A stretch of 64,000 bases of DNA. Origin: Escherichia coli (lineage in GTDB: Bacteria > Pseudomonadota > Gammaproteobacteria > Enterobacterales > Enterobacteriaceae). Of the stretch, positions 1 through 27,744 are shown piece by piece (position 1 is the first letter of the stretch; each line of letters opens with the position of its first letter). The notes under the pieces were generated by a model, which worked only from the letters and a program-made list of their open reading frames with translations, did not search any database and was not told where the DNA came from. The DNA is taken from NCBI RefSeq assembly GCF_009931435.1, contig NZ_CP043414.1; one strand, written 5' to 3'. The position numbers and the translations under genes are program-made.

Positions 1-779
1 GCTGACCTGCGGGGTCGGCAACTCCTCAGGCATGGTTCCGCCAAGTTCCTGAATGGTTTGCCTCACCTTGCTACCCACGTCAAAGTGTGTGGTATTAGCT
101 TGCTGTTTTGAATTCACGCCATCCCGCTTGAGTTTTTCTTCTGTTTGGGTAGCTCGAAAGAGATTAGCCGCCAGTTCTGTTGAACCCATATGATCCAGGA
201 TCTTCTGACTCTTTTTCAGCCCCTTCCGCTGATGGATGGCTTTCTGATCTAATCCACCATACAGTCCCCGGTAACCATGATTCTGAAATATGGCGAAATC
301 GATAGCTGTCGCTACCCCAGCTTGCTGCGCTGCCTCAACTAATTGTTTGTTATGTTCTTTCAACTCATTTCTCAGAAAAAGACGCTTTTCGTCTTCACGA
401 AGTTGCCTGAAAGCTTCATCGTCAGCCAGCTCCTGCCGTCGGGTCTGGATAGCAAAATAAGTTTGCCCTGCCGCAATAACCGGTTTCGCAGGGTCGCCGT
501 TTTGTACTACCAGGTAACAGGCATAGCGGGAGAGTACGATGTCTTTTAATGCTCTTTTGGCATTTGAGCCAATTTTGACCATATCGAGGATCTCCTCGAA
601 ATGGTCATCAATTGTGTGACCACTATTCAGACAAGCTTCTTTGGCGCGCGTTAATACAGGTATAAAGTGACGATACTCTGAATAACCCAGTAGTTTTCCA
701 AGTTGTCTTGCTGACCATTGTTCTGCTCCGTTTGCATTAATCAGCTTTATCTCTTCAAAAGGTTGATGATGTTCGTTCA
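1..779 (-). CDS. dinD: DNA damage-inducible protein DinD, 3' end truncated by window edge
   Basis: Minus-strand translation from ATG near 779 reads MNEHHQPFEEIKLINANGAEQWSARQLGKLLGYSEY... and stays open to position 1; not in ORF track because it has no stop inside the window. LexA box immediately upstream. Confidence 0.8.
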
Positions 780-2772: not shown

Positions 2773-3414
2773 ATGAAACCATATCAGCGCCAGTTTATTG
2801 AATTTGCGCTTGGCAAGCAGGTGTTAAAGTTTGGCGAGTTTACGCTGAAGTCCGGGCGCAAAAGCCCCTATTTCTTCAACGCCGGGCTGTTTAATACCGG
2901 GCGCGATCTGGCACTGTTAGGCCGTTTTTACGCTGAAGCATTGGTGGATTCCGGCATTGAGTTCGATCTGCTGTTTGGCCCTGCTTACAAAGGGATCCCA
3001 ATTGCCACTACTACCGCAGTGGCGCTGGCGGAGCATCATGACCTGGACCTGCCGTACTGCTTTAACCGCAAAGAAGCAAAAGACCACGGTGAAGGCGGCA
3101 ATCTGGTCGGTAGCGCGTTACAAGGACGCGTAATGCTGGTGGATGATGTGATCACCGCCGGAACGGCGATTCGCGAGTCGATGGAAATTATTCAGGCCAA
3201 TGGCGCGACGCTTGCTGGCGTATTGATTTCGCTCGATCGTCAGGAGCGTGGTCGCGGCGAGATTTCGGCAATTCAGGAAGTTGAACGTGATTACAACTGC
3301 AAAGTGATCTCTATCATCACCCTGAAAGACCTGATTGCTTACCTCGAAGAGAAGCCAGAAATGGCGGAACATCTGGCGGCGGTTAAGGCCTACCGCGAAG
3401 AGTTTGGCGTTTAA
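2773..3414 (+). CDS. pyrE: orotate phosphoribosyltransferase
   Basis: ORF track 2758..3414; canonical start [36 protein letters not shown] at ATG 2773. Confidence 0.95.
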
Positions 3415-3421
3415 AAATATG

Positions 3422-3450
3422 CGCTGCGCAGGTTTTTACTGTGCGCAGCG
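3422..3450 (+). terminator. stem-loop downstream of pyrE (possible terminator or retron boundary hairpin)
   Basis: CGCTGCGCA / TGCGCAGCG 9-bp inverted repeat with an 11-nt T-rich loop; no clear downstream T-run, so the terminator role is uncertain. Confidence 0.35.
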
Positions 3451-3484
3451 TGATGCGGTTTAAGATATCGTGTTAATCTGCTTT

Positions 3485-3678
3485 CGCCAGCAGTGGCAAT
3501 AGCGTTTCCGGCCTTTTATGCCGGGAGGGTCGGCGAGTCGCCGACTTAACGCCAGTAGGTTGTCCAGATACCCAAAGTCGCTCCATTGTACTTAAGTACG
3601 CTTCGCGTACGTCGCGCTGACGCGCTCAGTACAGTTACGCGCCTTCGGGATGGTTTGATGGTATTGCTGCTGTTGGCG
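3485..3678 (+). ncRNA. msr-msd: retron msr-msd non-coding region (template/primer RNA for msDNA)
   Basis: About 190-nt non-coding stretch directly upstream of the RT gene, flanked by inverted repeats a1 (about 3485-3503, CGCCAGCAGTGGCAATAGC) and a2 (about 3660-3678, GTATTGCTGCTGTTGGCG) that pair over 17 bp allowing G-U wobbles; internal palindromes (GTACTTAAGTAC, GTCGGCGAGTCGCCGAC) fit the msd stem. Boundaries are approximate. Confidence 0.6.
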
Positions 3679-3710
3679 CCTCTTTTGGCCGCCGTGATGT
3701 GGAGAGTGGA

Positions 3711-4670
3711 ATGGATGCTACCCGGATAACCCTTCTGGCGCTCGATTTGTTCGGCTCGCCGGGCTGGAGCGCCGATAAAGAAATACAGCGGCTGTATGCG
3801 CTCAGTAATCATGCCGGACGCCATTACCGACGCATTATTCTTTCTAAACGCCACGGTGGTCAGCGGCTGGTGTTAGCCCCTGATTACTTGCTCAAAACCG
3901 TACAGCGCAACATTCTTAAGAACGTCCTTTCACAATTTCCACTTTCCTCTTTTGCTACCGCCTACCGACAGGGTCGCCCAATCGTCAGCAACGCGCAGCC
4001 TCACTGCCAACAGCCGCAGATCCTTAAACTCGATATCGAAAACTTTTTCGATAGCATTAGCTGGCTACAGGTCTGGCGTGTGTTTAGCCAGACCCAGTTG
4101 CCACGCAATGTGGTAACCATGCTGACCTGGCTTTGTTGCTATAACGACGCGTTACCGCAGGGGGCGCCAACTTCGCCTGCCATTTCCAATCTTGTGATGC
4201 GCCGTTTTGATGAGTGCATAGGGGAATGGTGTCAGGCTCGGGGAATTACCTACACCCGCTACTGCGATGACATGACCTTTTCTGGTCACTTCAATGCCCG
4301 CCAGGTTAAAAATAAAGTATGCGGATTGTTAGCGGAGCTGGGCCTGAGCCTCAATCAACGCAAAAGCTGCCTGATAGCTGCCTGTAAGCGCCAGCAGGTA
4401 ACCGGGATTGTTGTTAATCACAAGCCACAGCTTGCCCGTGAAGCGCGCCGGGCGCTGCGTCAGGAAGTACATTTGTGCCAAAAATATGGCGTTATTTCGC
4501 ATCTTAGTCATCGTGGTGAACTTGATCCTTCTGGCGATCTCCACGCACAGGCAACGGCGTATCTTTATGCTTTGCAGGGAAGAATAAACTGGTTATTGCA
4601 AATCAATCCTGAGGATGAGGCCTTTAAACAGGCGAGGGTGAGTGTAAAGCGAATGCTGGTGGCATGGTAA
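3711..4670 (+). CDS. ret: retron-type reverse transcriptase (319 aa)
   Basis: ORF track 3699..4670 (start taken at first ATG, 3711). RT motifs visible: LKLDIENFFDSI, QGAPTSPAISNL, YTRYCDDMTF (YxDD box), GLSLNQRKS, and retron-typical VTG motif (RQQVTGIVVNHKP). Sits between pyrE and slmA, which are adjacent in K-12. Confidence 0.9.
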   Translation: MDATRITLLALDLFGSPGWSADKEIQRLYALSNHAGRHYRRIILSKRHGGQRLVLAPDYLLKTVQRNILKNVLSQFPLSSFATAYRQGRPIVSNAQPHCQQPQILKLDIENFFDSISWLQVWRVFSQTQLPRNVVTMLTWLCCYNDALPQGAPTSPAISNLVMRRFDECIGEWCQARGITYTRYCDDMTFSGHFNARQVKNKVCGLLAELGLSLNQRKSCLIAACKRQQVTGIVVNHKPQLAREARRALRQEVHLCQKYGVISHLSHRGELDPSGDLHAQATAYLYALQGRINWLLQINPEDEAFKQARVSVKRMLVAW

Positions 4671-4678
4671 GAAAAGCG

Positions 4679-4700
4679 TCAGGCAGACGTTTCTGCCTGA
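4679..4700. terminator. hairpin between convergent RT gene and slmA (candidate bidirectional terminator)
   Basis: TCAGGCAGA-CGTT-TCTGCCTGA perfect 9-bp stem; on the minus strand it is followed by a T-rich tract. Confidence 0.5.
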
Positions 4701-4713
4701 ACGTTTGGGAGAA

Positions 4714-5310
4714 TTACTGCAACTGCGCAGCAATTAGCGGCCAGCGGGCGTCAAAGTCATCCGTCGGGCGGTATTTAAACTCGCTGCGGACAAAGCGTGA
4801 CAGCATACCTTCACAGAAGGCCAGGATCTGGCTTGCCAGCAGGGTTTCGTCGGTGGTGTAACCTTCACCCTCACGCATTCTCTTTTCACGCAATACCTGA
4901 CGCAACTGCGCTTCAATACGCTCGAATAGCTGGTTGATGCGCCCTTGCAGGCGATCCTGTTCAAACATTAGTGCATGACCAGTGAGGATGCGGGTCAGGC
5001 CAGGATTACGCTCACCAAAACCGAGAAGCAGCAACACAATCAGACGCAGGCGCGCTGTGGTGTCTTTCTCATCTTTCAGAATCAGATTGATGCGAGTAAT
5101 CAGGCTATCTTCGATAAACTCAATCAGGCTATCGAACATGCGGGTCTTACTGGGGAAGTGGCGATACAGTGCCGCTTCGGAAACGCCGACAGAGGCGGCC
5201 AGTTTTGCCGTCGTGATACGTTGGCTTCCATCGCTGGATTCCAGCATCAGCGCCAGAGACTGAAGTATTTCCTCGCGACGGTTCCTTTTCGCAGTTTGTT
5301 TTTCTGCCAT
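4714..5310 (-). CDS. slmA: nucleoid occlusion factor SlmA (TetR family)
   Basis: ORF track 4714..5352; canonical start [52 protein letters not shown] 14 codons inside the track ORF. Confidence 0.95.
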
Positions 5311-11264: not shown

Positions 11265-11615
11265 AGTAAATAGCTGACTTATGGATGTGCTGGGGATTCT
11301 ATGTATTTAGCTGTGGCTTTACCATTACTTTTCCCGTTTTTGACTTAAATAGCAATTTACCCGCCAATTCTTGCTGAACATCTATACTTTTTTTGTATTT
11401 TTATGCGATTCATTGATTTCCGCAGTACGTGCAGTAAGGAATCGCGGAGCAACAGTGAAAGAATATTGTTGCTAATGATTTTATTTGATTGATTTCTTTA
11501 TTGAAAAACAACGATGTGCTTAAAAATCATTCGGATCGGATTGCCGCGAAAGAAGTGATACACTAGCGCGTCAATATCAGTACGGTATCAGTATTCAGGT
11601 AGCTGTTGAGCCTGG

Positions 11616-11627
11616 GGCGGTAGCGTG
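11616..11627 (+). promoter_or_regulatory. ops element (RfaH-dependent antitermination site) within the JUMPStart leader of the waaQ operon
   Basis: Exact GGCGGTAGCGTG motif about 50 nt upstream of the waaQ start, in the divergent waaA-waaQ intergenic region. Confidence 0.75.
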
Positions 11628-11676: not shown

Positions 11677-12735
11677 GTGGATAAGCCATTTCGAAGAATT
11701 TTGCTCATTAAGATGCGTTTTCATGGGGATATGTTATTAACTACTCCCGTCATTAGTTCGCTGAAAAAAAATTACCCTGACGCAAAAATCGATGTGCTGC
11801 TTTATCAGGATACCATCCCGATTCTGTCTGAAAATCCAGAGATTAACGCGCTCTACGGCATAAAAAATAAAAAAGCAAAAGCCTCAGAAAAAATTTCCAA
11901 CTTTTTTCATCTCATCAAGGTATTACGTGCCAATAAGTATGACCTTATCGTCAATCTTACCGATCAATGGATGGTTGCTATACTGGTTCGCTTATTAAAT
12001 GCCCGTGTGAAAATTTCCCAGGATTATCATCATCGGCAGTCTGCTTTTTGGCGTAAAAGCTTCACCCATCTGGTGCCGTTGCAGGGTGGAAATGTGGTGG
12101 AAAGTAACTTATCCGTGCTGACGCCACTGGGTCTCGAATCGTTGGTGAAGCAGACAACCATGAGTTACCCGCCTGCAAGCTGGAAACGAATGCGTCGCGA
12201 ACTTGATCACGCAGGTGTTGGACAAAATTATGTGGTTATCCAACCTACCGCGCGGCAAATCTTTAAATGCTGGGACAACGCCAAGTTTTCCGCTGTGATT
12301 GATGCCTTACATACACGTGGCTATGAAGTCGTTCTGACGTCCGGCCCGGATAAAGACGATCTGGCCTGCGTCAATGAAATTGCGCAGGGATGCCAGACGC
12401 CACCAGTAACGGCGTTGGCCGGAAAGGTAACCTTCCCGGAACTTGGTGCGTTAATCGATCATGCGCAGCTGTTTATTGGCGTTGATTCCGCACCGGCGCA
12501 CATTGCCGCTGCAGTTAATACGCCGCTGATATCGCTGTTTGGTGCGACAGACCATATTTTCTGGCGTCCCTGGTCAAATAACATGATTCAATTCTGGGCT
12601 GGAGATTACCGGGAAATGCCAACACGCGATCAGCGTGACCGAAATGAGATGTATCTTTCGGTTATTCCGGCGGCAGATGTCATTGCAGCTGTCGATAAAT
12701 TACTTCCCTCCTCCACGACAGGTACGTCGTTATGA
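11677..12735 (+). CDS. waaQ: LPS heptosyltransferase III
   Basis: ORF track 352 aa (GTG start) MDKPFRRILLIKMRFHGDMLLTTPVISSLKKNYPDAKIDVLLYQD...; first gene of the long waa operon. Confidence 0.88.
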   Translation: MDKPFRRILLIKMRFHGDMLLTTPVISSLKKNYPDAKIDVLLYQDTIPILSENPEINALYGIKNKKAKASEKISNFFHLIKVLRANKYDLIVNLTDQWMVAILVRLLNARVKISQDYHHRQSAFWRKSFTHLVPLQGGNVVESNLSVLTPLGLESLVKQTTMSYPPASWKRMRRELDHAGVGQNYVVIQPTARQIFKCWDNAKFSAVIDALHTRGYEVVLTSGPDKDDLACVNEIAQGCQTPPVTALAGKVTFPELGALIDHAQLFIGVDSAPAHIAAAVNTPLISLFGATDHIFWRPWSNNMIQFWAGDYREMPTRDQRDRNEMYLSVIPAADVIAAVDKLLPSSTTGTSL

Positions 12736-13856
12736 TCGTTGCTTTTTGTTTATATAAATATTTTCCCTTTGGCGGTTTGCAGCGCGATTTTATGCGTATT
12801 GCTCAGACAGTCGCTGCCCGAGGTCATCATGTTCGGGTTTATACCCAGTCGTGGGAAGGCGAATGCCCTGATGTATTTGAACTGATCAACGTGCCGGTTA
12901 AATCGCATACTAATCACGGGCGCAATGCGGAGTATTTTGCCTGGGTGCAAAAACATTTACGTGAACATCCCGTCGATAGAGTCGTTGGATTCAACAAAAT
13001 GCCGGGGCTGGACGTTTATTATGCCGCTGATGTTTGTTATGCCGAGAAAGTGGCGCAGGAGAAAGGCTTTTTCTATCGCTTGACGTCACGTTATCGCCAT
13101 TATGCCGCCTTTGAGCGGGCAACCTTTGAACAGGGCAAGCCGACACAGTTGCTGATGCTGACGGACAAGCAAATCGCCGATTTCCAGAAACATTATCAGA
13201 CTGAAGCGGAGCGTTTTCATATTCTGCCACCGGGGATTTATCCTGATCGTAAATATAGCCAGCAGCCAGCCAATAGCCGTGAAATCTTCCGTAAGAAGAA
13301 TGGAATAACCGAACAACAATATTTATTGTTGCAGGTCGGTTCAGACTTCACGCGTAAAGGTGTTGATCGTTCCATTGAAGCACTTGCTTCATTACCGGAT
13401 TCGCTGCGCCACAACACATTGCTATATGTTGTTGGGCAGGATAAACCGCGAAAATTTGAGGCGCTGGCAGAAAAACGCGGCGTGCGCAGTAATGTTCACT
13501 TCTTCTCGGGGCGCAACGATGTCTCGGAATTAATGGCGGCGGCGGATTTATTACTGCATCCTGCCTACCAGGAAGCGGCGGGAATTGTGCTGCTGGAAGC
13601 GATTACTGCAGGATTACCGGTACTAACAACAGCCGTTTGTGGCTATGCGCGTTATATTGTTGACGCCAATTGCGGCGAGGCTATTGCTGAGCCATTCCGC
13701 CAGGAAACATTGAATGAGATTTTACGCAAAGCGTTAACGCAATCTTCATTGCGCCAGGCCTGGGCGGAAAATGCGCGACATTATGCTGATACACAAGATT
13801 TATACAGTCTGCCAGAGAAAGCAGCGGACATCATAACGGGTGGTCTGGATGGTTGA
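12732..13856 (+). CDS. waaG: LPS core glucosyltransferase I
   Basis: ORF track 374 aa [43 protein letters not shown]... Confidence 0.95.
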
Positions 13857-14646
13857 ACTTAAAGAGCCGTTTGCCACGTTATGGCGCGGTAAAGATCCTT
13901 TTGAGGAAGTTAAAACCTTGCAGGGTGAGGTTTTTCGTGAACTGGAAACTCGCCGCACTCTGCGCTTTGAAATGGCGGGCAAAAGCTATTTTCTCAAATG
14001 GCATCGCGGCACGACCCTGAAAGAGATAATCAAAAATTTACTCTCATTGCGGATGCCAGTATTAGGCGCAGACCGCGAATGGAATGCGATTCATCGACTG
14101 CGGGATGTCGGCGTTGATACTATGTATGGGGTGGCATTCGGCGAAAAAGGCATTAATCCACTGACCAGAACCTCGTTTATTATAACCGAAGATCTGACAC
14201 CAACCATCAGTCTGGAAGATTACTGTGCTGACTGGGCGACTAACCCTCCAGATGTTCGCGTAAAGCGTATGCTTATTAAGCGTGTCGCGATGATGGTGCG
14301 CGATATGCATGCTGCGGGCATTAACCACCGTGACTGTTATATCTGTCATTTCCTGCTGCACTTGCCTTTTTCCGGTAAGGAAGAGGAGTTAAAAATTTCA
14401 GTAATTGACCTGCACCGGGCGCAGCTTCGCACGCGCGTTCCACGTCGTTGGCGCGATAAAGATCTTATTGGGCTTTATTTTTCTTCGATGAATATTGGCC
14501 TGACTCAGCGGGATATCTGGCGGTTCATGAAGGTGTATTTTGCTGCCCCGCTTAAAGACATTCTCAAGCAGGAACAAGGGCTGCTGTCGCAAGCAGAAGC
14601 AAAAGCCACAAAAATCAGGGAAAGAACGATTCGAAAATCGTTGTAA
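13849..14646 (+). CDS. waaP: LPS core heptose I kinase
   Basis: ORF track 13840..14646; canonical start [54 protein letters not shown] at ATG 13849, overlapping the waaG stop. Confidence 0.9.
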
Positions 14647-14661: not shown

Positions 14662-15678
14662 ATGAGTGCCCACTATTTTAATCCACAAGAGATGATCAAT
14701 AAGACAATCATCTTCGATGAAAGGCCAGAGGCGTCAGTGGCATCATCATTCCATGTTGCTTATGGCATTGATAAAAACTTTCTTTTTGGTTGTGGTGTTT
14801 CAATCACGTCAGTTTTGTTACATAACAACGACGTGAGTTTTGTCTTCCACGTTTTTATTGATGATATCCCTGACGCCGATATCCAGCGTTTATCCCAATT
14901 GGCGAAAAGCTATCATACCTGTATCCAGATCCATCTGGTAAATTGTGAACGGCTTAAGGTATTACCGACGACCAAAAATTGGTCTATTGCCATGTATTTC
15001 CGTTTTGTAATTGCAGATTACTTTATTGATCAACAAGATAAGATCCTGTACCTGGATGCTGATATCGCCTGTCAGGGAACCTTAAAACCGCTGATAACAA
15101 TGGATCTTGCCAATAACGTTGCTGCTGTTGTTACTGAACGCGATGCTAACTGGTGGTCGTTACGGGCTCAAAGTCTGCAGTGTAATGAACTTGAAAAGGG
15201 TTACTTTAATTCAGGTGTCCTGTTAATTAATACACTAGCGTGGGCGCAGGAGTCCGTTTCTGCTAAAGCGATGTCGATGCTTGCTGATAAAGCCGTCGTT
15301 TCCCGTTTAACCTATATGGATCAAGATATACTAAATCTTATCCTGTTAGGGAAAGTTAAATTCATTGATGCTAAATACAATACGCAATTTAGTTTAAATT
15401 ATGAATTAAAAAAATCATTTATTTGTCCAATTAATGATGAAACCGTATTAATTCATTATGTCGGCCCGACAAAACCCTGGCATTACTGGGCCGGTTATCC
15501 AAGCGCGCAGCCATTTATCAAAGCCAAAGAAGCATCGCCATGGAAAAATGAACCGTTAATGCGGCCAATTAACTCAAATTATGCTCGTTATTGCGCTAAG
15601 CATAATTTTAAACAAAATAAACCAATTAACGGGATAATGAATTATATTTATTATTTTTATTTAAAGATAATAAAATGA
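14662..15678 (+). CDS. waaO: glycosyltransferase family 8, LPS outer-core alpha-1,3-glucosyltransferase (R1-type WaaO)
   Basis: ORF track 338 aa; GT8 signature (FHVAYGIDKNF..., LYLDADIACQG, HYVGPTKPWHYWAGYP); first of three GT8 paralogues after waaP, the R1 core-type order. Confidence 0.75.
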   Translation: MSAHYFNPQEMINKTIIFDERPEASVASSFHVAYGIDKNFLFGCGVSITSVLLHNNDVSFVFHVFIDDIPDADIQRLSQLAKSYHTCIQIHLVNCERLKVLPTTKNWSIAMYFRFVIADYFIDQQDKILYLDADIACQGTLKPLITMDLANNVAAVVTERDANWWSLRAQSLQCNELEKGYFNSGVLLINTLAWAQESVSAKAMSMLADKAVVSRLTYMDQDILNLILLGKVKFIDAKYNTQFSLNYELKKSFICPINDETVLIHYVGPTKPWHYWAGYPSAQPFIKAKEASPWKNEPLMRPINSNYARYCAKHNFKQNKPINGIMNYIYYFYLKIIK

Positions 15679-15694
15679 CATTGAGAAAAGTTAA

Positions 15695-16690
15695 ATGAAT
15701 GAATTTATAAAAGAACGGTTTTCGTATTTAGCAGATAATAAAAAAGAAAACGTCCCAGAGCTAAATGTTTCCTACGGTATCGATAAGAATTTTTTGTATG
15801 GTGCTGGCGTTTCAATTTCTTCCGTTTTGATTAATAATTCAGATATTAATTTTGTCTTTCATGTTTTCACTGATTATGTGGATGATGATTATTTAAAGTC
15901 ATTTAATGAAACAGCAAAACAATTTAATACCTCAATTATTGTATATTTAATTGACCCAAAATACTTTGCTGATCTACCGACGTCACAGTTTTGGTCGTAC
16001 GCGACATACTTCAGGGTATTGTCCTTTGAATATCTGAGTGAAAGTATTTCCACACTGCTGTATCTGGATGCCGATGTCGTTTGTAAAGGAAGTCTGAAAC
16101 CTCTCACAAAAATTATATTTAAAGATGAGTTTGCTGCGGTTATTCCTGACAATGATAGTACTCAGGCGGCATGTGCAAAACGTCTTAACATTCCCGAAAT
16201 GAATGGACGTTATTTCAATGCAGGCGTTATCTATGTCAATCTTAAAAAATGGCATGAAGCAAATTTGACACCGTATTTACTCAAACTTTTACGAGGGGAA
16301 ACTAAATATGGCTCTCTTAAATATTTAGATCAGGATGCGTTGAATATCGCATTTAATATGAATAATATCTACCTTGCGAAGGATTTTGATACTATTTATA
16401 CCCTGAAAAACGAACTTTATGATCGTAGTCATCGAAAGTATCAGCAAACCATTACCGATAAAACAGTGTTGATTCACTATACAGGGATAACTAAACCATG
16501 GCATAGCTGGGCTGGATATCCGTCTGCATCATACTTTAATATCGCGCGTGAACAATCTCCCTGGAAGAAATATCCTCTTAAAGAGGCGCGGACTGTTGCA
16601 GAAATGCAGAAACAATATAAGCATCTGTTTGCCCATGGTGAGTATATAAAAGGCATAACTTCATTAATTAAGTACAAGCTTAAGAAATAA
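15695..16690 (+). CDS. waaT: glycosyltransferase family 8, LPS outer-core alpha-1,2-glycosyltransferase (R1-type WaaT)
   Basis: ORF track 331 aa; GT8 motifs (VSYGIDKNF, LYLDADVVCKG, HYTGITKPWHSWAGYP). Assignment to WaaT by position in the R1-type order. Confidence 0.7.
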   Translation: MNEFIKERFSYLADNKKENVPELNVSYGIDKNFLYGAGVSISSVLINNSDINFVFHVFTDYVDDDYLKSFNETAKQFNTSIIVYLIDPKYFADLPTSQFWSYATYFRVLSFEYLSESISTLLYLDADVVCKGSLKPLTKIIFKDEFAAVIPDNDSTQAACAKRLNIPEMNGRYFNAGVIYVNLKKWHEANLTPYLLKLLRGETKYGSLKYLDQDALNIAFNMNNIYLAKDFDTIYTLKNELYDRSHRKYQQTITDKTVLIHYTGITKPWHSWAGYPSASYFNIAREQSPWKKYPLKEARTVAEMQKQYKHLFAHGEYIKGITSLIKYKLKK

Positions 16691-16699
16691 ATTACTCTT

Positions 16700-17392
16700 A
16701 TGATTACAAGTATACGTTATCGCGGCTTCTCATTTTATTACAAAGATAATGATAATAAATATAAAGAAATCTTTGATGAAATACTGGCCTATAATTTTAA
16801 AACAGTAAAAGTATTACGTAATATTGATGATACCAAAGTATCGTTGATTGATACGAAATATGGTCGCTATGTTTTTAAAGTCTTTGCTCCGAAAACGAAA
16901 AGGAATGAACGTTTTTTAAAATCTTTTGTAAAAGGTGACTACTATCAGAATTTGATCGTTGAAACCGATCGTGTCAGAAGTGCAGGTCTTACTTTTCCTA
17001 ATGATTTTTATTTTCTGGCTGAGCGTAAAATTTTCAACTATGCCAGTGTTTTTATCATGCTTATCGAGTATGTCGAGGGCGTAGAGCTCAATGATATGCC
17101 GATTATTCCAGAAAATGTTAAAGCAGAAATTAAGGTTTCAATGGAAAAATTGCATGCCTTAAATATGCTATCGGGCGACCCACACCGGGGTAACTTTATC
17201 GTTAGTAAAGATGGTGTCAGGATAATTGACCTATCCGGTAAAAGCTGTACGGCAGAGCGTAAAGCTCGTGATCGTCTGGCCATGGAACGTCACCTGGGTA
17301 TTGCCAACGAAATAAAAGATTATGGCTACTATTCAGTAATCTACAGAACCAAACTACGCAAATTTATTAAAAAATTAAAAGGCAAAGCGTAA
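16700..17392 (+). CDS. waaY: LPS core heptose II kinase
   Basis: ORF track 230 aa MITSIRYRGFSFYYKDNDNKYKEIFDEILAYNFKTVKVLRNIDDTKVSLIDTKYGRYVFKVF...; kinase-like HRGNFIV / IIDLSGK motifs. Confidence 0.85.
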   Translation: MITSIRYRGFSFYYKDNDNKYKEIFDEILAYNFKTVKVLRNIDDTKVSLIDTKYGRYVFKVFAPKTKRNERFLKSFVKGDYYQNLIVETDRVRSAGLTFPNDFYFLAERKIFNYASVFIMLIEYVEGVELNDMPIIPENVKAEIKVSMEKLHALNMLSGDPHRGNFIVSKDGVRIIDLSGKSCTAERKARDRLAMERHLGIANEIKDYGYYSVIYRTKLRKFIKKLKGKA

Positions 17393-17417
17393 ACCACACA
17401 GTCAAAACGGAACCAAC

Positions 17418-18446
17418 ATGGATTTATTAGCTGAGAGTATTACTGAAGTCGCTGTCTCTGGGGAAATTGCTAACACCGATCGTGTGTTAAATATCGCTTA
17501 CGGTATTGACCGTAATTTTTTATTTGGTGCGGCAGTATCTATGCAATCAGTTGTTATGCATAACCCGGACCTTGCGGTTAAGTTTCATCTCTTTACCGAC
17601 TACATTGATGAAGATTATCTACAACGTGTTAACGCTTTTACCAGCAAAAATGCTAACGTTGAAGTAAGAATTTATAAAGTCTCCAGTGCCTTTATTGATA
17701 TCTTCCCCAGCCTGAAACAGTGGTCTTATGCAACATTCTTCCGTTTAGTTGCGTTCCAGTATCTGAGTGAAACTATTGAAAATCTGTTATATATCGATGC
17801 TGATGTCATCTGTAAAGGCTCATTAGCTGGATTGCTTGATATTAATTTTGACGGCGATAAGTTTGCAGCTGTTATTAAAGATGTGCCTTTTATGCAGGAA
17901 AAACCAGCGAAGCGTCTGGCTATAGAGGGACTTCCAGGGAATTATTTCAACGCTGGTGTAGTATATCTGCAGCTTGAAGCATGGTCGAAAAATGATTTTA
18001 TGAACAAAGCCATTGCTATGCTGGCAAGTGACCCGCAGCACACGAAATATAAATGCCTTGATCAGGATATTTTAAATATTCTGTTCTTTGGTCATTGTAT
18101 TTTTATTAGCGGCGATTATGATTGCTTTTATGGCATTGACTATGAGTTAAAAAATAAAAGCAATGAAGATTATAAAAAGACCATTACCGATGATACTAAG
18201 CTGATTCATTATGTTGGCGTAACGAAGCCCTGGAACGACTGGACAAATTATCCCTGCCAGAAGTATTTTAATGAGGCTTATCAGGCTTCTTGCTGGAATG
18301 ATGTGGCGTTTATTCCAGCCACGAATGAAAAGCAGTATCAAGTGAAATACCAACATGCAAAGAAAAATGGTGATACGTTTAACGCTTTCATTTACTTCAT
18401 TAAATTCAAATTAAATAAGTATAAAAGAAAACTATTTGGGCAATAA
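17418..18446 (+). CDS. waaW: glycosyltransferase family 8, LPS outer-core alpha-1,2-galactosyltransferase (R1-type WaaW)
   Basis: ORF track 342 aa; GT8 motifs (IAYGIDRNF, LYIDADVICKG, HYVGVTKPWNDWTNYP). Assignment by position after waaY. Confidence 0.7.
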   Translation: MDLLAESITEVAVSGEIANTDRVLNIAYGIDRNFLFGAAVSMQSVVMHNPDLAVKFHLFTDYIDEDYLQRVNAFTSKNANVEVRIYKVSSAFIDIFPSLKQWSYATFFRLVAFQYLSETIENLLYIDADVICKGSLAGLLDINFDGDKFAAVIKDVPFMQEKPAKRLAIEGLPGNYFNAGVVYLQLEAWSKNDFMNKAIAMLASDPQHTKYKCLDQDILNILFFGHCIFISGDYDCFYGIDYELKNKSNEDYKKTITDDTKLIHYVGVTKPWNDWTNYPCQKYFNEAYQASCWNDVAFIPATNEKQYQVKYQHAKKNGDTFNAFIYFIKFKLNKYKRKLFGQ

Positions 18447-18524
18447 AAATCATGGATGTCTGAGTTACAATAATAATTAAGGATGAGTACTATCATATTT
18501 TATTAGTTCAGGCAAGAGAACACG

Positions 18525-19508
18525 ATGAGCAATGATTACCCTTTAGTATCCATAATAATACCGACGTATAATTCATCTGATTACATTACTGAAACTCTAA
18601 CGAAATTAGAAAAACAAACTTACCCAAATTTTGAAATTGTTATTGTTAATGATGGTTCTAAAGATAACACATCAAACGTTTTGAGAGAGTATGGGTTAAC
18701 CCACTCGCAATTAATTATTATCAATAAAGAAAATGGCGGTGTTTCGTCTGCCAGGAATACAGGTATCCGCAAGGCGCAAGGACAGTTTATATGTTTTATG
18801 GATGATGATGATGAGATAGATCCTAACTATCTGCTGAAGATGTATTCCAGACAACATGAGACGGGAGGGGATGCGATTTATTGTGGGCTTTATGGCCATC
18901 ATATAAAAAATGGTGTTACTTACTCACCTATAAATACAGAGTTTAATGAAGGGTCTTTACTTTTCGACTTTTTTTATAAAAAGGTCAGATTCCATATAGG
19001 GTGCTTGTTTATAAGAAAACAACTCCTGGAAGATAATAATCTTTTTTTTGATGAAGATTTACGACTAGGAGAAGATCTGGATTTTATCTATCGACTGCTA
19101 ATTACATGCGATATGTATGCGGTTCCATATTATATGTATAAGCATAACTATAGAGAAAATTCCTTAATGAACTCATGTAGAACCATCACTCATTATCGAC
19201 ATGAGTCATTTGCGCACGAAAGAATCTACTCTTCTGTGATGCAGTTATACAAAGGTAACCGGAAAGAAGAAATTCATACATTATTGAGTAAAAATAGAAC
19301 TTATCATAAAACTCGTTATTTATGGAATGTTCTACTTAATGGCGATTTTGAATTATTAAATCAATTAGTTGAAAGCAATGAAAAAGAATTGAAAGATTGT
19401 AATCTTCTTGGCAAGAGAGATAAGAGGCGAGCAAAAATATTAGCATCAAAAAACTATATTCTCTGGAGGATGGTAAGACTGGTAAATAGAAAAAAGAATA
19501 AACGTTAG
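18525..19508 (+). CDS. waaV: glycosyltransferase family 2, LPS outer-core beta-glucosyltransferase (R1-type WaaV)
   Basis: ORF track 327 aa MSNDYPLVSIIIPTYNSSDYITETLTKLEKQTYPNFEIVIVNDGSKDNT... (GT2 fold motif, DDDDE). Assignment by position before waaL. Confidence 0.7.
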   Translation: MSNDYPLVSIIIPTYNSSDYITETLTKLEKQTYPNFEIVIVNDGSKDNTSNVLREYGLTHSQLIIINKENGGVSSARNTGIRKAQGQFICFMDDDDEIDPNYLLKMYSRQHETGGDAIYCGLYGHHIKNGVTYSPINTEFNEGSLLFDFFYKKVRFHIGCLFIRKQLLEDNNLFFDEDLRLGEDLDFIYRLLITCDMYAVPYYMYKHNYRENSLMNSCRTITHYRHESFAHERIYSSVMQLYKGNRKEEIHTLLSKNRTYHKTRYLWNVLLNGDFELLNQLVESNEKELKDCNLLGKRDKRRAKILASKNYILWRMVRLVNRKKNKR

Positions 19509-19553
19509 GTCTTCCATTAAATAACCCATCCTCGTAGCATAGGTTGAAATTAT

Positions 19554-20807
19554 ATGTCGTTTTGTTGGAATGAAATTAACTCTGGTGTCAAGTCTTTAAC
19601 TCTCATATTATGTATGTTGTCTTTAATGACTTTGTCTTTGTGGGATGATGTTGCAACAAAGTTTCTTCATGCAGCTGGAATTATATCTGCATTATATTTT
19701 CTAGCGACACCAAAAAAAACAATAACTAATAATCCTACGTTGTTAATTTTCATCTCATTATGTCTTTTGGGTATCGTTAATATCATCTGGTATTCACATT
19801 ATAAAGTTTCAGGCTCGGTTTATACCAATGCATATCGTGGCCCAATGGAAACTGGAAAAATTGCCTTGTGTAGTGCTTTTATTTTCTTAGTTCTTTTTGC
19901 TAAAGATGAGATGAGAACCAAAATAAAATTTGGGAAACTAATTCTGTTCGCATCCCTGGCAACGCAGTTACTTTTTTTTGCGCATGCCATGTGGCAACAT
20001 TTCTATTTAAACGTCGACCGTGTTGCATTATCAGCTTCCCACGCTACAACAGCAGGCTACATCATCCTTTTCCCTTCTTTACTGGCATCAATTCTCATTT
20101 TAAAATCCGACTTTAGACATAAAACAACATTATATACAATTAACTTCATGCTTAGCTTATGTGCTGTTATAGTAACTGAAACGCGTGCAGCCATATTAGT
20201 GTTTCCATTCTTTGCGTTACTATTAATCGTAATGGATAGTTATATTAATAAGCGAATTAATTATAAGTTATATTGTTTTATTGCGATTGCATTATTAGCA
20301 GGTGTATTTTCTTTTAAAGATACATTACTTACGAGAATGAATGACTTAAATAGGGATTTAGTTAATTATTCGCATGATAACACCAGAACTTCAGTCGGTG
20401 CCCGTCTGGCAATGTATGAAGTTGGTTTAAAAACATATTCTCCAATAGGACAATCACTGGAAAAACGCGCGGAAAAAATACATGAACTAGAAGAGAAAGA
20501 GCCTAGATTAAGTGGCGCTTTACCCTTTGTAGATTCTCATTTGCATAACGATCTCATAGATACGTTATCAACGCGTGGTATTCCTGGAGTAGTATTAACA
20601 ATTTTAGCCTTTTCAGCAATATTCATATATGCCTTAAGAACTGCTAAAGAACCTTATATTTTAATCTTGCTTTTTTCACTACTGGTAGTAGGCCTAAGTG
20701 ATGTAATACTCTTTTCTAAACCGGTTCCGACTGCTGTGTTTGTCACCATAATATTGCTTTGTGCTTATTTTAAAGCACAATCGGACCAATGTTTATTAGA
20801 TAAGTAA
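19554..20807 (+). CDS. waaL: O-antigen ligase
   Basis: ORF track 417 aa, polytopic membrane protein with a late periplasmic loop; last gene of the operon before convergent waaC. AT-rich like the rest of the central waa genes. Confidence 0.85.
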   Translation: MSFCWNEINSGVKSLTLILCMLSLMTLSLWDDVATKFLHAAGIISALYFLATPKKTITNNPTLLIFISLCLLGIVNIIWYSHYKVSGSVYTNAYRGPMETGKIALCSAFIFLVLFAKDEMRTKIKFGKLILFASLATQLLFFAHAMWQHFYLNVDRVALSASHATTAGYIILFPSLLASILILKSDFRHKTTLYTINFMLSLCAVIVTETRAAILVFPFFALLLIVMDSYINKRINYKLYCFIAIALLAGVFSFKDTLLTRMNDLNRDLVNYSHDNTRTSVGARLAMYEVGLKTYSPIGQSLEKRAEKIHELEEKEPRLSGALPFVDSHLHNDLIDTLSTRGIPGVVLTILAFSAIFIYALRTAKEPYILILLFSLLVVGLSDVILFSKPVPTAVFVTIILLCAYFKAQSDQCLLDK

Positions 20808-20821
20808 TGAATATGTGAAAT

Positions 20822-20845
20822 AAAATCAGCAAGGAAGCTGATTTT
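20822..20845. terminator. bidirectional intrinsic terminator between convergent waaL and waaC
   Basis: AAAATCAGC-AAGGAA-GCTGATTTT: 9-bp stem flanked by A-run on one side and T-run on the other. Confidence 0.6.
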
Positions 20846-20876
20846 ATTTCAAAATTATCTATTAAAGAGTTGTAAT

Positions 20877-21857
20877 TTAAATCATGGCAGCTTTTTCAGC
20901 GTTTTCTTCAATGAATTGCTTAACAGCATTTGCTGTCAATTGAGACAACTCATTCCCCGGTGCCCTACATACCATCTGATTCTTCCCATACCCGCCAATT
21001 AATCCCGGATCGGTTGGCCCATAAACCGTGATATTCGGTCGATCCAGTGCTGCAGTTAAATGGCTTAATCCTGTATCGACTGACACAACAAATTTAGCCC
21101 CCGCCAGCACACAAGCAACGCCTTCCAGACTCATCTTCGGCAATACTTCAACATAAGCAAATCCTTCCGCCAGTCTTTTTGCCCGCTCTTCTTCATGCGG
21201 CGCGCCCCACGGAAGTTTAATGCGAATCCCTGAATCTGCCAGTAAACCAATCAACTCTCGCCAGTGTGCTTCCGGCCAGTGTTTATCATCACGGGTTGTT
21301 GCATGAAGAAATACGGCATATTCGCCAGCATCTGTTGGCAGGTTCGTCAGGAAATGCTGCGCAATAGCATAATCGCCCTGAGTCTGCGGTTTGCTATAGC
21401 CCAGACTTTTGGCAAACAGTTCGCGGGTGCGTTCTACGGCGTGCTGCTGTTTTGCAATATGATGTTTACGATTGTAAAACAGGCTGGCTAAAGGTTCGCG
21501 TGCGGTTTGCCAGTCCATTCCATGCTTTACGCCATGCGCCAGACGCGTAACTAGTGCCGCGCTTTTTACCAGCCCCTGAGCGTCGATAACTGCGTCATAG
21601 TTCTCTGCTTGTAGCGCTTCACGAAACGCTTTGCGTTCAGCTTTTATGGGGGCCGAGAACCAGGCTTTACGCCAGCGACGTATTGCCACAGGAATAACTC
21701 GCTCAACGGCGGCGTGCCAGGAAGGAATTTGTGCGAACCCTTCTTCCACCACCCAGTCAAACTTAATCCCCGGGATTGCCTGCTGGGCATCAGTGAGTGC
21801 GGGCAACGTATGGAGAACATCGCCCATCGACGATGTTTTAACGATCAAAACCCGCAT
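20877..21857 (-). CDS. waaC: LPS heptosyltransferase I
   Basis: ORF track 326 aa MRVLIVKTSSMGDVLHTLPALTDAQQAIPGIKFDWVVEEGFAQIP... Confidence 0.92.
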   Translation of the reverse strand: MRVLIVKTSSMGDVLHTLPALTDAQQAIPGIKFDWVVEEGFAQIPSWHAAVERVIPVAIRRWRKAWFSAPIKAERKAFREALQAENYDAVIDAQGLVKSAALVTRLAHGVKHGMDWQTAREPLASLFYNRKHHIAKQQHAVERTRELFAKSLGYSKPQTQGDYAIAQHFLTNLPTDAGEYAVFLHATTRDDKHWPEAHWRELIGLLADSGIRIKLPWGAPHEEERAKRLAEGFAYVEVLPKMSLEGVACVLAGAKFVVSVDTGLSHLTAALDRPNITVYGPTDPGLIGGYGKNQMVCRAPGNELSQLTANAVKQFIEENAEKAAMI

Positions 21858-21860
21858 CCG

Positions 21861-22907
21861 TCAGGCTTCCTCTTGTAACAATAGCGCGTTGAGTTCTTCC
21901 AGTACGCGCTGGGGAGTAATGTCGATCAAGCTCTGGTGATAACCCTCCGCAGCATCACCTTTACGCACTTTGTGATAGCCGGTAATCAGGCGGATCACGC
22001 GCGCTTTATGGGATAGTGGCGGTGTGAAGTCCGGGCTACTCGGACCATACAGGGCAACCAAAGGACGATTGAGCGCCGCCGCAACGTGCATCAGGCCAGA
22101 ATCGTTAGTGACAATGGCTTTACAGGCTGCAATCAGGATAACCGCTTGATCAAGCTGTGTTTCCCCCGCCAGGTTCCGGCACCATGCCTGCTGCTCGGTA
22201 TTCAAAGCGGCAAGAATCTCATTGCCCGCTTCATGATCTTTCGCCGAGCCAAACAGAACCACCTGATAACCTTCATCAATCAGCTGCTTTGCCAGCTCAG
22301 CATAGTGGTAGTGTGGCCAGCGTTTTGCCGGACCAAACTCCGCCCCCGGGCAAAAGCCAATCATCGGACGTTCTGATGAGAGCGAAAATTGATTACAGGT
22401 ATATGATTTTTCACCTTCGCTCACCTGCAACTGCGGCCATAACAATGGCTGCGGCAGATCTTGTGCGGTACGCATAATGCCTTTGTCATAGGCCAGCGCG
22501 ACATAGCGTTCCACCATTAGCGGCCAGGCTTCTTTATCGAGCACGCGTACATCGTTAAGTAAACCGTAGCGCATCTCGCCGCGCCAGCCGGTGCGATGAG
22601 GAATACCCGCGAAGAAAGGCACTAATGCGGACTTGAAGGAGTTGGGTAAGACGTAGGCGCGGTCGTAGCGCTTTTCACGCAGACTATGACCCAGTTTGCG
22701 GCGTTCGCCGATTTCCAGCGCTCCGTGACCGAGAGGCATAGGGATAGCTTCGTTAACTTCCGGCATCCGCGATAACAATGGACGGCACCATGCCGGTGCC
22801 ATCACGTCGATTATCGCCTGGGGATAGCGCGCCTGGAGCGTGCGATAGAGACTTTGCGACATCATCATGTCGCCAACCCAAGACGGGCCGATCACCAGTA
22901 TTTTCAT
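21861..22907 (-). CDS. waaF: LPS heptosyltransferase II
   Basis: ORF track 348 aa MKILVIGPSWVGDMMMSQSLYRTLQARYPQAIIDVMAPAWCRPLL... Confidence 0.95.
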   Translation of the reverse strand: MKILVIGPSWVGDMMMSQSLYRTLQARYPQAIIDVMAPAWCRPLLSRMPEVNEAIPMPLGHGALEIGERRKLGHSLREKRYDRAYVLPNSFKSALVPFFAGIPHRTGWRGEMRYGLLNDVRVLDKEAWPLMVERYVALAYDKGIMRTAQDLPQPLLWPQLQVSEGEKSYTCNQFSLSSERPMIGFCPGAEFGPAKRWPHYHYAELAKQLIDEGYQVVLFGSAKDHEAGNEILAALNTEQQAWCRNLAGETQLDQAVILIAACKAIVTNDSGLMHVAAALNRPLVALYGPSSPDFTPPLSHKARVIRLITGYHKVRKGDAAEGYHQSLIDITPQRVLEELNALLLQEEA

Positions 22908-22916
22908 GCAGAGCTC

Positions 22917-23849
22917 TTATGCGTCGCGATTCAGCCAGGCCATGTATTCCGTTACACCTTCAGCAACGGTTTTGAACGGTTTGTCGTAACCCGCCGCGCG
23001 CAGATTCGTCAGATCTGCCTGAGTGAACGCCTGATAGCGGCCTTTCAGTTTATCCGGGAACGGAATGTATTCGATCTGGCCTTTCTTGTGATAAGCAAGC
23101 GTAGCATCTGCTACTGCCTGGAAGGATTCTGCACGACCGGTGCCGAGGTTGAAGATGCCGGAAACGCCGTTTTCCAGGAACCACAGATTCACATCAGCCA
23201 CGTCGCCCACATAGACGAAGTCACGTTTGAAGTTCTCGCTACCTTCGAACAGCTTCGGTGATTCACCGTTGTTAAGCTGAGTGTTGAGATGGAAAGCGAC
23301 GCTCGCCATGCTGCCTTTATGGCCTTCACGCGGTCCATAAACGTTGAAATAGCGGAAGCCAACAATCTGCGAGTTCGCTTCTGGCAGGATTTGGCGAACA
23401 TATTCATCAAACAGGAATTTTGAGTAACCGTAGACGTTCAACGGTTTTTCGTACTCGCGGGATTCAATAAAGTCGGAGGTGCGACCGCCGTAAGTGGCCG
23501 CGGAAGAAGCGTACAGGAACGGGATTTCGCGTTCCAGACAGTAGTGCAGCAGCTCTTTGGAGTATTGATAGTTGTTATCCATCATATACTTGCCATCCCA
23601 CTCGGTGGTGGAAGAGCACGCGCCTTCGTGGAAAATCGCTTCGACATCGCCGAACTCTTCGCCAGCCATAATCTGGATCAGGAAGTCTTCCTTATCCATA
23701 TAGTCCGCGATATCCAGATCCACCAGGTTCACAAACTTGGTGCCGTCTTTCAGGTTGTCCACCACCAGAATATCGGTGATGCCTTTGTCATTCAGGGCTT
23801 TAACGATGTTGCTGCCGATAAAGCCCGCGCCGCCGGTAACGATGATCAT
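22917..23849 (-). CDS. hldD: ADP-L-glycero-D-manno-heptose-6-epimerase
   Basis: ORF track 310 aa [39 protein letters not shown]... (Rossmann GxGxxG). Confidence 0.95.
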
Positions 23850-26709: not shown

Positions 26710-27744
26710 ATGATGAACAGCACCAATAAACTCAGTGTTATTATCCCGTTATATAATGCGGGAGATGATTTCCGTACTTGCATGGAATCTTTAATCGCGC
26801 AAACCTGGACTGCTCTGGAAATCATTATTATTAACGATGGTTCAACGGATAATTCTGTTGAAATAGCAAAGCATTACGCGGAAAACTATCCGCACGTTCG
26901 TTTGCTGCATCAGGCGAATGCCGGCGCATCGGTGGCGCGTAATCGTGGGATCGAGGCGGCGACGGGTAAATATGTCGCTTTTGTCGATGCTGACGATGAG
27001 GTCTATCCCACTATGTACGAAACGCTGATGACCATGGCGTTAGAGGACGACCTCGACGTGGCGCAGTGCAACGCTGACTGGTGTTTTCGTGAAACGGGAG
27101 AAACCTGGCAGTCCATCCCCAGCGATCGCCTTCGCTCAACCGGCGTATTAACCGGCCCGGACTGGCTGCGAATGGGGCTTTCTTCCCGCCGTTGGACTCA
27201 TGTTGTCTGGATGGGCATTTATCGTCGTGATGTCATTGTTAAAAATAACATTAAATTTATTGCCGGATTACATCATCAGGATATTGTCTGGACAACAGAA
27301 TTTATGTTTAACGCGCAACGCGTGCGATATACCGAGCAATCGTTATATAAATATTATTTGCATAATACGTCAGTGAGCCGATTGAATAGACAGGGAAATA
27401 AAAACCTTAATTATCAACGCCACTATATTAAGATTACCCGACTGTTGGAAAAGTTAAATCGCGATTACGCAGACAGAATAGTGATTTACCCGGAATTTCA
27501 TCAACAAATAACTTACGAAGCATTACGTGTTTGCCATGCGGTACGTAAAGAGCCAGATATTATTACCCGCCAACGGATGATTGCTGAGATATTTACTTCC
27601 GGTATGTATAAGCGACTGATTTTCAATGTACGCAGCATAAAGGTGGGTTATCAGGCGTTACTGTGGTCTTTCCGCTTATGGCAATGGCGCGACAAAACGC
27701 GGTCGCACCATCGCATTACGCGTAGCGCCTTTAATTTGCGCTAG
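26710..27744 (+). CDS. waaH: GT2-family glycosyltransferase WaaH (YibD)
   Basis: ORF track 344 aa [49 protein letters not shown]...; conserved position after tdh. Confidence 0.9.

Follow-up and report, generated by a model that had tools for sequence, protein, structure and literature searches.

Which lipopolysaccharide core type is encoded by the waa locus in a stretch of 64,000 nucleotides of Escherichia coli DNA (hereafter, the window)? An earlier reading, based on the sequence alone, had proposed the R1 type, since the genes downstream of waaQ, waaG and waaP, which it took to be conserved, appeared to be waaO-waaT-waaY-waaW-waaV-waaL rather than the set found in K-12. The core type sets the O-antigen attachment site, and it affects the reactivity with core-directed antibodies and vaccines as well as the susceptibility to core-targeting phages (PMC12548472, PMC10368449). 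Thus, an R1 call annotates the strain correctly. The segment from 11.6 to 20.8 kb is almost certainly an intact R1-type waaQ operon with the gene order waaQ-G-P-O-T-Y-W-V-L, transcribed from a JUMPStart/ops leader upstream of waaQ. No evidence contradicting the R1 assignment was found.

Layout of the locus and its flanks

Positions 14662-20807 are filled by six intact ORFs, all on the plus strand, and their boundaries in the ORF map coincide exactly with those given in the sequence-only reading (Table 1). They match, in this order, the Pfam families Glyco_transf_8 with 8C, again Glyco_transf_8 with 8C, WaaY, a third Glyco_transf_8 with 8C, Glycos_transf_2 and Wzy_C (E-values from 4.5e-129 to 2e-17), which bears out the series GT8, GT8, waaY, GT8, GT2 and waaL that had been proposed to follow waaQ-waaG-waaP. 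The gaps between these ORFs measure 16, 9, 25, 78, and 45 nt, respectively. The start of waaP was set from homologous annotated CDSs. The names waaO-waaT-waaY-waaW-waaV-waaL agree with those used in the literature on R1 strains (PMC13293308, PMC12548472, PMC3526765).

Table 1. Features of the waaQ operon and its flanks (positions in the window).
Feature	Position	Strand	Evidence or remark
JUMPStart element in waaQ leader	11589..11627	+	Rfam RF01707, 55.2 bits (gathering score 35)
ops site GGCGGTAGCGTG	11616-11627		exact match, inside JUMPStart
waaQ, heptosyltransferase III, R1/R3/R4-class allele	11677..12735	+	NCBIfam RfaQ, 713 bits
waaG, GT4 glucosyltransferase I	12732..13856	+	Pfam Glycos_transf_1
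waaP, heptose I kinase	13849..14646	+	NCBIfam RfaP, 480 bits
waaO, GT8, 338 aa	14662..15678	+	Pfam GT8 + GT8C
waaT, GT8, 331 aa	15695..16690	+	Pfam GT8 + GT8C
waaY, heptose II kinase, 230 aa	16700..17392	+	Pfam WaaY, E = 4.5e-129
waaW, GT8, 342 aa	17418..18446	+	Pfam GT8 + GT8C
R1R4-R primer site	18287-18306		in waaW
waaV, GT2, predicted R1-specific beta-1,3-glucosyltransferase, 327 aa	18525..19508	+	Pfam Glycos_transf_2, E = 4e-39
R1-F primer site	19107-19125		in waaV
waaL, R1-type O-antigen ligase, 417 aa	19554..20807	+	Pfam Wzy_C; end of waaQ operon, on waaQ strand
Hairpin, 15-bp stem, between convergent waaL and waaC	20816..20851	.	terminator scan, consensus match only
rfaD(gmhD)-waaF-waaC operon, convergent with waaL	20877..23849	-	NCBIfam RfaC, 632 bits; ORF list; annotated homologues

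The JUMPStart element and the ops site in the leader of waaQ mark a long operon that depends on RfaH. A promoter scan yielded 35 sites as compared with 30.5 ± 6.2 in shuffled sequences, i.e., no excess. The hairpin between waaL and waaC looks like a bidirectional terminator and is considered a putative one. In K-12, R2 and R3, waaL is located inside the rfaD-waaF-waaC operon, whereas it lies outside that operon in the window.

The central genes, the type-variable middle of the waa locus, are also more AT-rich than any other block of the window, with a GC content of 35.2% between 14662 and 20807 vs. 50.8% in the rest; among sliding windows of 6146 bases across the 64 kb, the one with the lowest GC content has its start at 14801. 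Per gene, the GC content is 32.7-37.8% in the six central genes and 47-54% in waaA, waaQ, waaG, waaP, waaC and waaF. Thus, the compositional shift at 14.6-20.8 kb, which had been explained from the R1 gene content, is real, but it is not specific for R1: in each of the five core types compared, the central waa genes have a GC content of 33-35% and, therefore, AT-richness marks outer-core genes generally and is not diagnostic of R1.

Assignment to a core type

The locus was compared with five reference clusters (R1, R2, R3, R4 and K-12), each validated with published typing primers. All nine proteins of the operon have their full length and share 96-99% identity with those of the published R1 reference strain NCTC122 (96.2-99.1% for the six central ones), and the gene order from waaQ to waaC is collinear with the annotated locus of that strain. 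The same content and order, waaQGPOTYWVL with waaL on the waaQ strand, are also found in the reference strain F470 and in BL21(DE3) and TK001. The DNA of the central 6.1 kb shows 97.9% identity to that of NCTC122 (GC content of 35.0% in NCTC122 and 35.2% in the window), and the two loci show allelic differences only. These include WaaO and WaaL, both at 96.2% identity, and WaaW, which counts 342 residues in the window vs. 341 in NCTC122; in the alignment, a small indel, which is also present in strains RMDEC465 and 2020CK-00188, shifts the stop codon of waaW.

The loci of K-12 and R2 resemble that of the window in their position between waaA and waaC, in the presence of waaQGP, a waaO and a waaY, and in their AT-rich central block. 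However, K-12 carries waaS, waaB, waaJ(R), waaZ and waaU, R2 carries waaK, waaL is located on the opposite strand in an rfaD-waaFCL operon in both, and the shared proteins are only 52-90% identical to those of the window. The K-12 set waaS/waaB/waaJ/waaZ/waaU had been named correctly, as judged from the annotation of MG1655. K-12 also possesses waaO and waaY, but their products share only about 52% identity with those encoded in the window. More precisely, WaaO shows 51.8% identity to K-12 WaaO, and WaaY shows 99.1% identity to its R1 counterpart and about 52-54% to those of K-12, R2 and R3. As waaS, waaB, waaZ and waaU were undetected by tblastn and waaL shares the strand of waaQ, the window does not contain a K-12 core cluster. 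The R3 locus of O157:H7 has waaQGP genes with about 98-99% identity to those of the window, but it continues with waaI-waaY-waaJ-waaD and an opposite-strand waaL, and none of its outer-core proteins exceeds 55% identity to those of the window.

Conservation of waaQ-waaG-waaP, as assumed in the sequence-only reading, holds within the R1/R3/R4 class, where identities amount to ~99% for WaaQ (R1, R3, R4), 98-99% for WaaG (R1, R3, R4) and 98.9% over 265 residues for WaaP (R1, R4), but not in comparison with K-12 (73, 90 and 84%, respectively). Divergence from K-12 thus starts already at waaQ and not at 14.6 kb.

The sister type R4 shares waaO, waaT, waaY and waaW with R1 and could, in principle, be confused with it: the window and the R4 locus share 92-99% identity in the proteins WaaQ, G, P, O, T, Y and W, an R4-typed genome has the first four central genes at 92-99% identity, and waaL ends the waaQ operon in R4 as well. 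WaaT is even 99.4% identical to its counterpart in an R4 strain (99.1% in NCTC122; ≤45% for WaaJ/WaaR of other types), and about 700 genomes match the segment only over its first 60%, i.e., the waaO-waaT-waaY-waaW part; the one that was inspected has the arrangement of R4, with a GT25 gene and another ligase. After waaW, however, the loci part. R4 continues with the GT25 gene waaX and its own ligase, whereas the window has the GT2 gene waaV, whose product is 97.2% identical to WaaV of NCTC122 over 327 residues and found no match in the R4, R3, R2 or K-12 reference clusters in the protein comparison. WaaL is 96.2% identical to the R1 ligase and only 35.5% and 30.1% to those of R4 and K-12, respectively, and blastp found no match to the R2 or R3 ligase. 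WaaW, too, is closer to R1 (98.5%) than to R4 (91.8%). With waaX missing and the ligase at 35%, an R4 assignment is ruled out with near certainty. The alignment places the R1/R4 divergence point at ~18349, ~100 nt upstream of the stop codon of waaW, and the R1-specific part comprises only waaV and waaL, from about 18.35 to 20.8 kb, plus the last ~100 nt of waaW. WaaV and WaaX are the determinants of R1 and R4, respectively (PMC3526765), and the waaL allele is used for core typing (PMC8715443). Best matches of the GT8 and GT2 genes to R3 or R4 clusters had been named beforehand as the outcome that would speak against R1; the R1 call survived this comparison, in which WaaV was without a match in R3 and R4.

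Core-typing PCR had been suggested as a further check, and it was carried out in silico with published primers (PMC13293308). The pair R1-F and R1R4-R matches the window exactly and yields a product of 839 bp, whereas the other seven of the nine primers, i.e., those for R2, R3, R4 and K-12, have no match in the window at up to 3 mismatches; this includes R4-F. As a control, the primers gave the published pattern on the five reference loci. The product differs by 3 bp from the nominal 842 bp; this was rejected as a discrepancy, as it corresponds to the allelic indel at the waaW stop codon.

Hybrid core types exist, such as an ECOR46-like combination of R1 and R4 (PMC13293308), and the flanks in the window show patchy recombination. 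The R1 genes might, therefore, represent only a part of a hybrid or novel locus, e.g., an R1/R4 or a K-12/R2-like recombinant. Yet, the window contains just one waaL and one GT2 gene, and the segment from waaQ to waaC is collinear with NCTC122 and full length. In tblastn searches of the 64 kb, WaaX gave no hit, and WaaS, WaaB, WaaZ, WaaU, WaaK, WaaD, WaaI and WaaJ found no counterpart beyond weak same-fold matches. With one waaL and no foreign outer-core genes, a hybrid within the window was rejected as extremely improbable.

Predicted assembly of the outer core

For the R1 operon, the biosynthetic order can be drawn from established work on R1 strains, and the sugar specificities and linkages from the near-identity of the proteins to characterized enzymes. 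WaaG would add the first glucose onto heptose II, and WaaO presumably the second outer-core glucose. WaaT and WaaW would then add two alpha-1,2-linked galactoses, the first and the terminal one, respectively. WaaV is predicted to attach a beta-1,3-glucose side branch to the second glucose, which would be the O-antigen attachment site, and the R1-specific WaaL would ligate O-antigen onto this side branch. In the heptose region, WaaP and WaaY probably transfer phosphate to heptose I and heptose II, respectively, and WaaQ probably adds heptose III. In the R1 strain TK001, waaV mutants lose O-antigen, WaaT and then WaaW add the galactoses, and WaaT and WaaV count 331 and 327 residues, respectively, the same lengths as in the window (PMC12548472).

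The NCBIfam label of the waaO product is "3-alpha-galactosyltransferase", a name belonging to Salmonella WaaI, while WaaO is a glucosyltransferase in the annotation of MG1655. Sequence alone cannot settle whether glucose or galactose is the donor sugar.

The Wzy_C domain of WaaL scores 63.8 bits in Pfam (cut-off 31.7), and its residues R211, R284 and H331 align with R215, R288 and H338 of K-12 WaaL. We take the latter, i.e., the conserved Arg, Arg and His of the periplasmic loops, to be essential according to published mutagenesis. By these features, i.e., Wzy_C with the Arg, Arg and His, the protein belongs to the WaaL O-antigen ligase family.

A cluster of R1 content may still be defective, resulting in a rough or truncated core, and inactivated relatives are indeed found: waaT is interrupted by IS1 in BL21(DE3), and waaW is frameshifted in 2020CK-00188. 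In the window, however, none of the nine ORFs is interrupted, each aligns with its reference protein over the entire length, the cluster contains no IS element, and proteins of exactly the same sequence occur in 16-111 independent contigs. A defect is, therefore, very unlikely.

Prevalence, alleles and chromosomal background

The R1 type is the most common core type of E. coli, with a share of 35-39%, and it is enriched in UPEC, NMEC and APEC (PMC13293308, PMC8715443), in line with the earlier remark that it is common. Consistently, at least 80% of the segment is present in 1825 of the 5426 complete E. coli genomes, NCTC122 and the IS1-interrupted BL21(DE3) among them. Thus, with a presence in about one third of the sequenced E. 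coli, the R1 cluster is ordinary. The window contains this well-known cluster, and the same sequence is already public: the six exact central protein sequences are in public databases, and a contig of 21,017 bp in the assembly of a public read run matches the window with 100% identity. As the most common core type with a sequence that is already public, the locus adds nothing new to biology, and the value of the R1 call is practical only, in the correct annotation of the strain. The statement that R1 fixes the strain background has to be toned down. R1 is found in phylogroups A, B2, C and F (PMC8715443, PMC13293308) and, hence, constrains the background only weakly.

As WaaO and WaaL are 96.2% and not about 99% identical to those of NCTC122, the window represents a distinct R1 allele group, with 99.7% identity to strain RMDEC465 and a match of at least 99% in 85 genomes. 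The allele differences in WaaO, WaaL and WaaW may slightly alter the core. Compared with RMDEC465, 0.34% of the positions differ in the central 6.1 kb (21/6146), as do 1.30% in the left and 1.50% in the right flank. For positions 1-25000 of the window, the best complete genome is at most 98.8% identical, followed by IAI39 and CE10, both of phylogroup F, with 97.5%. A tentative explanation, which we consider possible but somewhat doubtful, is that the R1 outer-core cassette recently underwent exchange, via homologous recombination, with a lineage that is otherwise less closely related. If so, the cassette would sit in an uncommon chromosomal background. Either phenomenon, the cassette exchange or an effect of the alleles, would represent routine population genetics of E. 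coli and not a new system.

Strain EC77, which matches 68% of the segment, was considered as a variant type, but its waa genes contain numerous frameshifts and the annotation downstream of them is fragmentary, which points to a poor assembly, and it was rejected. Near the locus, identity dips at 535-751, 12687-12971 and 20961-21114. The strongest of them falls in dinD and has 99.2% identity to other E. coli alleles; the dips were, therefore, rejected as something unusual and are best regarded as ordinary recombination mosaics.

Assignment to the R1 core type

A sequence-only reading had assigned the six central waa genes at 14662-20807 to the R1 type of LPS core, and this assignment held up when they were compared by blastp with reference waa loci of R1 (NCTC122), R4 (FDAARGOS_1282), K-12 (MG1655), R3 (O157:H7 strain TR01) and R2 (Ec-050-T0) and when typing primers were applied in silico. 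The six ORFs lie on the same strand, exactly within the limits and in the order proposed, and NCBIfam identifies the flanking genes as RfaQ and RfaP and, downstream of the block, RfaC. The GC content is 35.2%, with 33-38% in each gene, as compared with 50.8% in the remaining window, and the block is the 6-kb stretch of lowest GC within the 64 kb. Thus, given the ORF limits, the order of the Pfam domains and the GC figures, gene content, order, coordinates and the compositional shift across 14.6-20.8 kb are all real.

Features of the window, with blastp identities of the central Waa proteins to those of reference loci
Feature	Position	Strand	Product or description	Identity to R1 (NCTC122)	Identity to other types
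waaO	14662-15678	+	338 aa; Pfam GT8 + GT8C	96.2%	96.5% R4; 51-55% K-12, R2, R3
waaT	15695-16690	+	331 aa; Pfam GT8 + GT8C	99.1%	99.4% R4; 43-45% K-12, R2, R3
waaY	16700-17392	+	230 aa; Pfam WaaY; NCBIfam RfaY	99.1%	98.7% R4; 52-54% K-12, R2, R3
waaW	17418-18446	+	342 aa; Pfam GT8 + GT8C	98.5%	91.8% R4; 37-38% K-12, R2, R3
waaV	18525-19508	+	327 aa; Pfam GT2	97.2%	no match in any other type
waaL	19554-20807	+	417 aa; Pfam Wzy_C	96.2%	35.5% R4; 30.1% K-12; none R2, R3
JUMPStart	11589-11627		with exact ops motif
ops-like match	37820-37831	+	within lldP (- strand)
waaH	26710-27744	+	N-terminal GT2 domain
divergent cluster	12687-12971		in waaG
divergent cluster	20961-21114		3' end of waaC
dinD block	535-751		within dinD (- strand)
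pyrE	2773-3414
insertion	3415-4712		1.3 kb
inverted repeat	3485-3501 / 3662-3678		5' of RT
RT ORF	3699-4670	+	323 aa, intact
slmA	4714-5310
adhesin region	~39300-42700		part of YadA-like/EhaG gene
Rhs element and remnants	~52500-62400		rhsC-like element, then polymorphic toxin type 34, tlde1 domain, Imm57, yibA, yibG, ISAs1 fragment (homology with L008)

At least 80% of the 6.1-kb segment was found by megablast in 1825 of 5426 complete E. coli genomes, including NCTC122, which serves as R1 reference elsewhere (PMC13293308), and BL21(DE3), where the segment is interrupted by IS1. In ~700 further genomes, the match was limited to the first 60% of the segment, i.e., waaO-waaT-waaY-waaW; in one of these, FDAARGOS_1282, waaW is followed by a gene for a GT25 protein and by one for a different ligase, which is the R4 arrangement. 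The determinants of R1 and R4 are WaaV and WaaX, respectively (PMC3526765). The two types diverge ~100 nt upstream of the waaW stop codon, near 18349, so that only about 18.35-20.8 kb is truly specific to R1.

With the primers of PMC13293308, the control amplicons for R1, R4, K-12, R3 and R2 were 842, 380, 1442, 1021 and 610 bp, all published sizes. The R1 pair matches the window exactly and yields 839 bp; the 3-bp deficit is due to a small indel at the waaW stop codon, which makes WaaW 342 instead of 341 aa and is common to the closest relatives. None of the remaining seven primers matches the window with three mismatches allowed. Reverse tblastn with type-specific proteins detected no waaX, waaS, waaB, waaZ, waaU, waaK or waaD in the whole window and only one copy of waaL; thus, a hybrid core locus is excluded within the window. 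The polymorphism is textbook knowledge, and it was recognized correctly.

An apparent partial R1 locus was seen in E. coli EC77 (NZ_CP196708.1, 5001-9306), with frameshifts in waaY, waaW and waaV, no waaL and fragmentary downstream genes. Considering the frameshifts and gene fragments, poor assembly quality is the most likely explanation, rather than a new core type.

Differences from the other core types

The waaQ-waaG-waaP genes, regarded as conserved in the sequence-only reading, are so within the R1/R3/R4 class (about 98-99%), but not with respect to K-12 and R2, where protein identity is about 73% for WaaQ, 88-90% for WaaG and 84% for WaaP. Therefore, divergence from K-12 starts in the waaA-waaQ intergenic region and not at 14.6 kb; DNA identity to MG1655 drops from about 97% in waaA to 67-79% over 11.5-14.5 kb. 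The R1 type had also been invoked to explain the compositional shift, but the central waa genes are GC-poor in each of the five reference loci (R1, 35.0%; R4, 34.5%; K-12, 33.3%; R3, 33.1%; R2, 35.4%), and the shift marks outer-core genes generally rather than R1. Nor does the R1 type fix the strain background, as had been suggested: it is found in phylogroups A, B2, C and F (PMC8715443; PMC13293308), and one third of the complete genomes carry it.

In R1 and R4, waaL is the last gene of the waaQ operon; the waaL of K-12, R2 and R3 is located on the opposite strand, after waaC. WaaC varies in the length of its C-terminus by core type: the reference proteins are 318-330 aa long, that of the window 326 aa.

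Operon structure and proposed functions

The nine genes from waaQ to waaL are all intact and closely packed; neighbours overlap by 4 and 8 nt in two cases and are otherwise 9-78 nt apart. Upstream of waaQ lies a JUMPStart element containing an exact ops motif, a hallmark of RfaH-dependent long operons, and a hairpin with a 15-bp stem separates waaL from the convergent waaC. The ops-like pattern GGCGGTAGNNTG recurs exactly within lldP, where it lacks JUMPStart context and is probably due to chance.

Near-identity to characterised enzymes, together with the literature, suggests that WaaG, WaaO, WaaT and WaaW would build the Glc-Glc-Gal-Gal backbone and that WaaV would add a β-1,3-glucose branch, to which the R1-type WaaL would join the O-antigen, whilst WaaP, WaaQ and WaaY may modify the heptose region. 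In an R1 strain, galactoses are added by WaaT and then WaaW, and O-antigen is lost in waaV mutants; WaaV (327 aa) and WaaT (331 aa) have the same lengths there as in the window (PMC12548472). In WaaL, the residues aligned with R215, R288 and H338 of K-12 are retained as Arg, Arg and His. The NCBIfam label "3-alpha-galactosyltransferase" on WaaO is the name of Salmonella WaaI and should not be taken literally, as sequence cannot give donor sugars. Outside the R1 cassette, WaaH is a distant paralogue of WaaV (32% identity over 139 aa in its GT2 domain).

Relatives and variable regions

Among complete E. coli genomes, identity over 1-25000 reaches at most 98.8%; 2020CK-00188 ranks first, ahead of the phylogroup F strains IAI39 and CE10 (97.5%). 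The source strain belongs to a lineage sparsely represented among complete genomes. The sequence of the segment is not new: all six proteins are present verbatim in public collections (16-111 contigs each), and 21,017 bp of the window (4662-25678) recur with 100% identity in a contig of the Logan assembly of run ERR3330281. Identity to strain RMDEC465 is 99.66% in the central cassette, as against 98.5-98.7% in the flanks, a contrast that recombinational exchange of the cassette would be expected to produce; such exchange is routine in E. coli and only mildly interesting here.

Two clusters flanking the outer-core cassette, in which 7-12% of sites differ even from the closest relatives, look like recombination mosaics. 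Within dinD, 43% of positions in one block differ from the two closest relatives; the block agrees at 99.2% with the dinD allele that other E. coli strains carry and is therefore a dimorphic allele or a patch of recombination, nothing unusual.

The insertion between pyrE and slmA, which is absent from RMDEC465 and O157 TR01 (unaligned there), encodes a reverse transcriptase (RT) that matches the retron model RT_Ec107-like of PADLOC (E = 2.2e-132); an internal stop makes the RT of 2020CK-00188, the closest relative, a pseudogene. No accessory effector gene adjoining the RT is evident, and the inverted repeat could flank the msr-msd RNA. It was at exactly this pyrE-ttk(slmA) site that retron Ec107 was first described.

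The region within a large trimeric autotransporter adhesin gene is a variable passenger region, unmatched in the nearest relative at the megablast level; the relative's alignment begins only at 42704. Further downstream lies an Rhs element, followed, as judged by homology with an annotated locus (L008), by a series of orphan toxin/immunity remnants.
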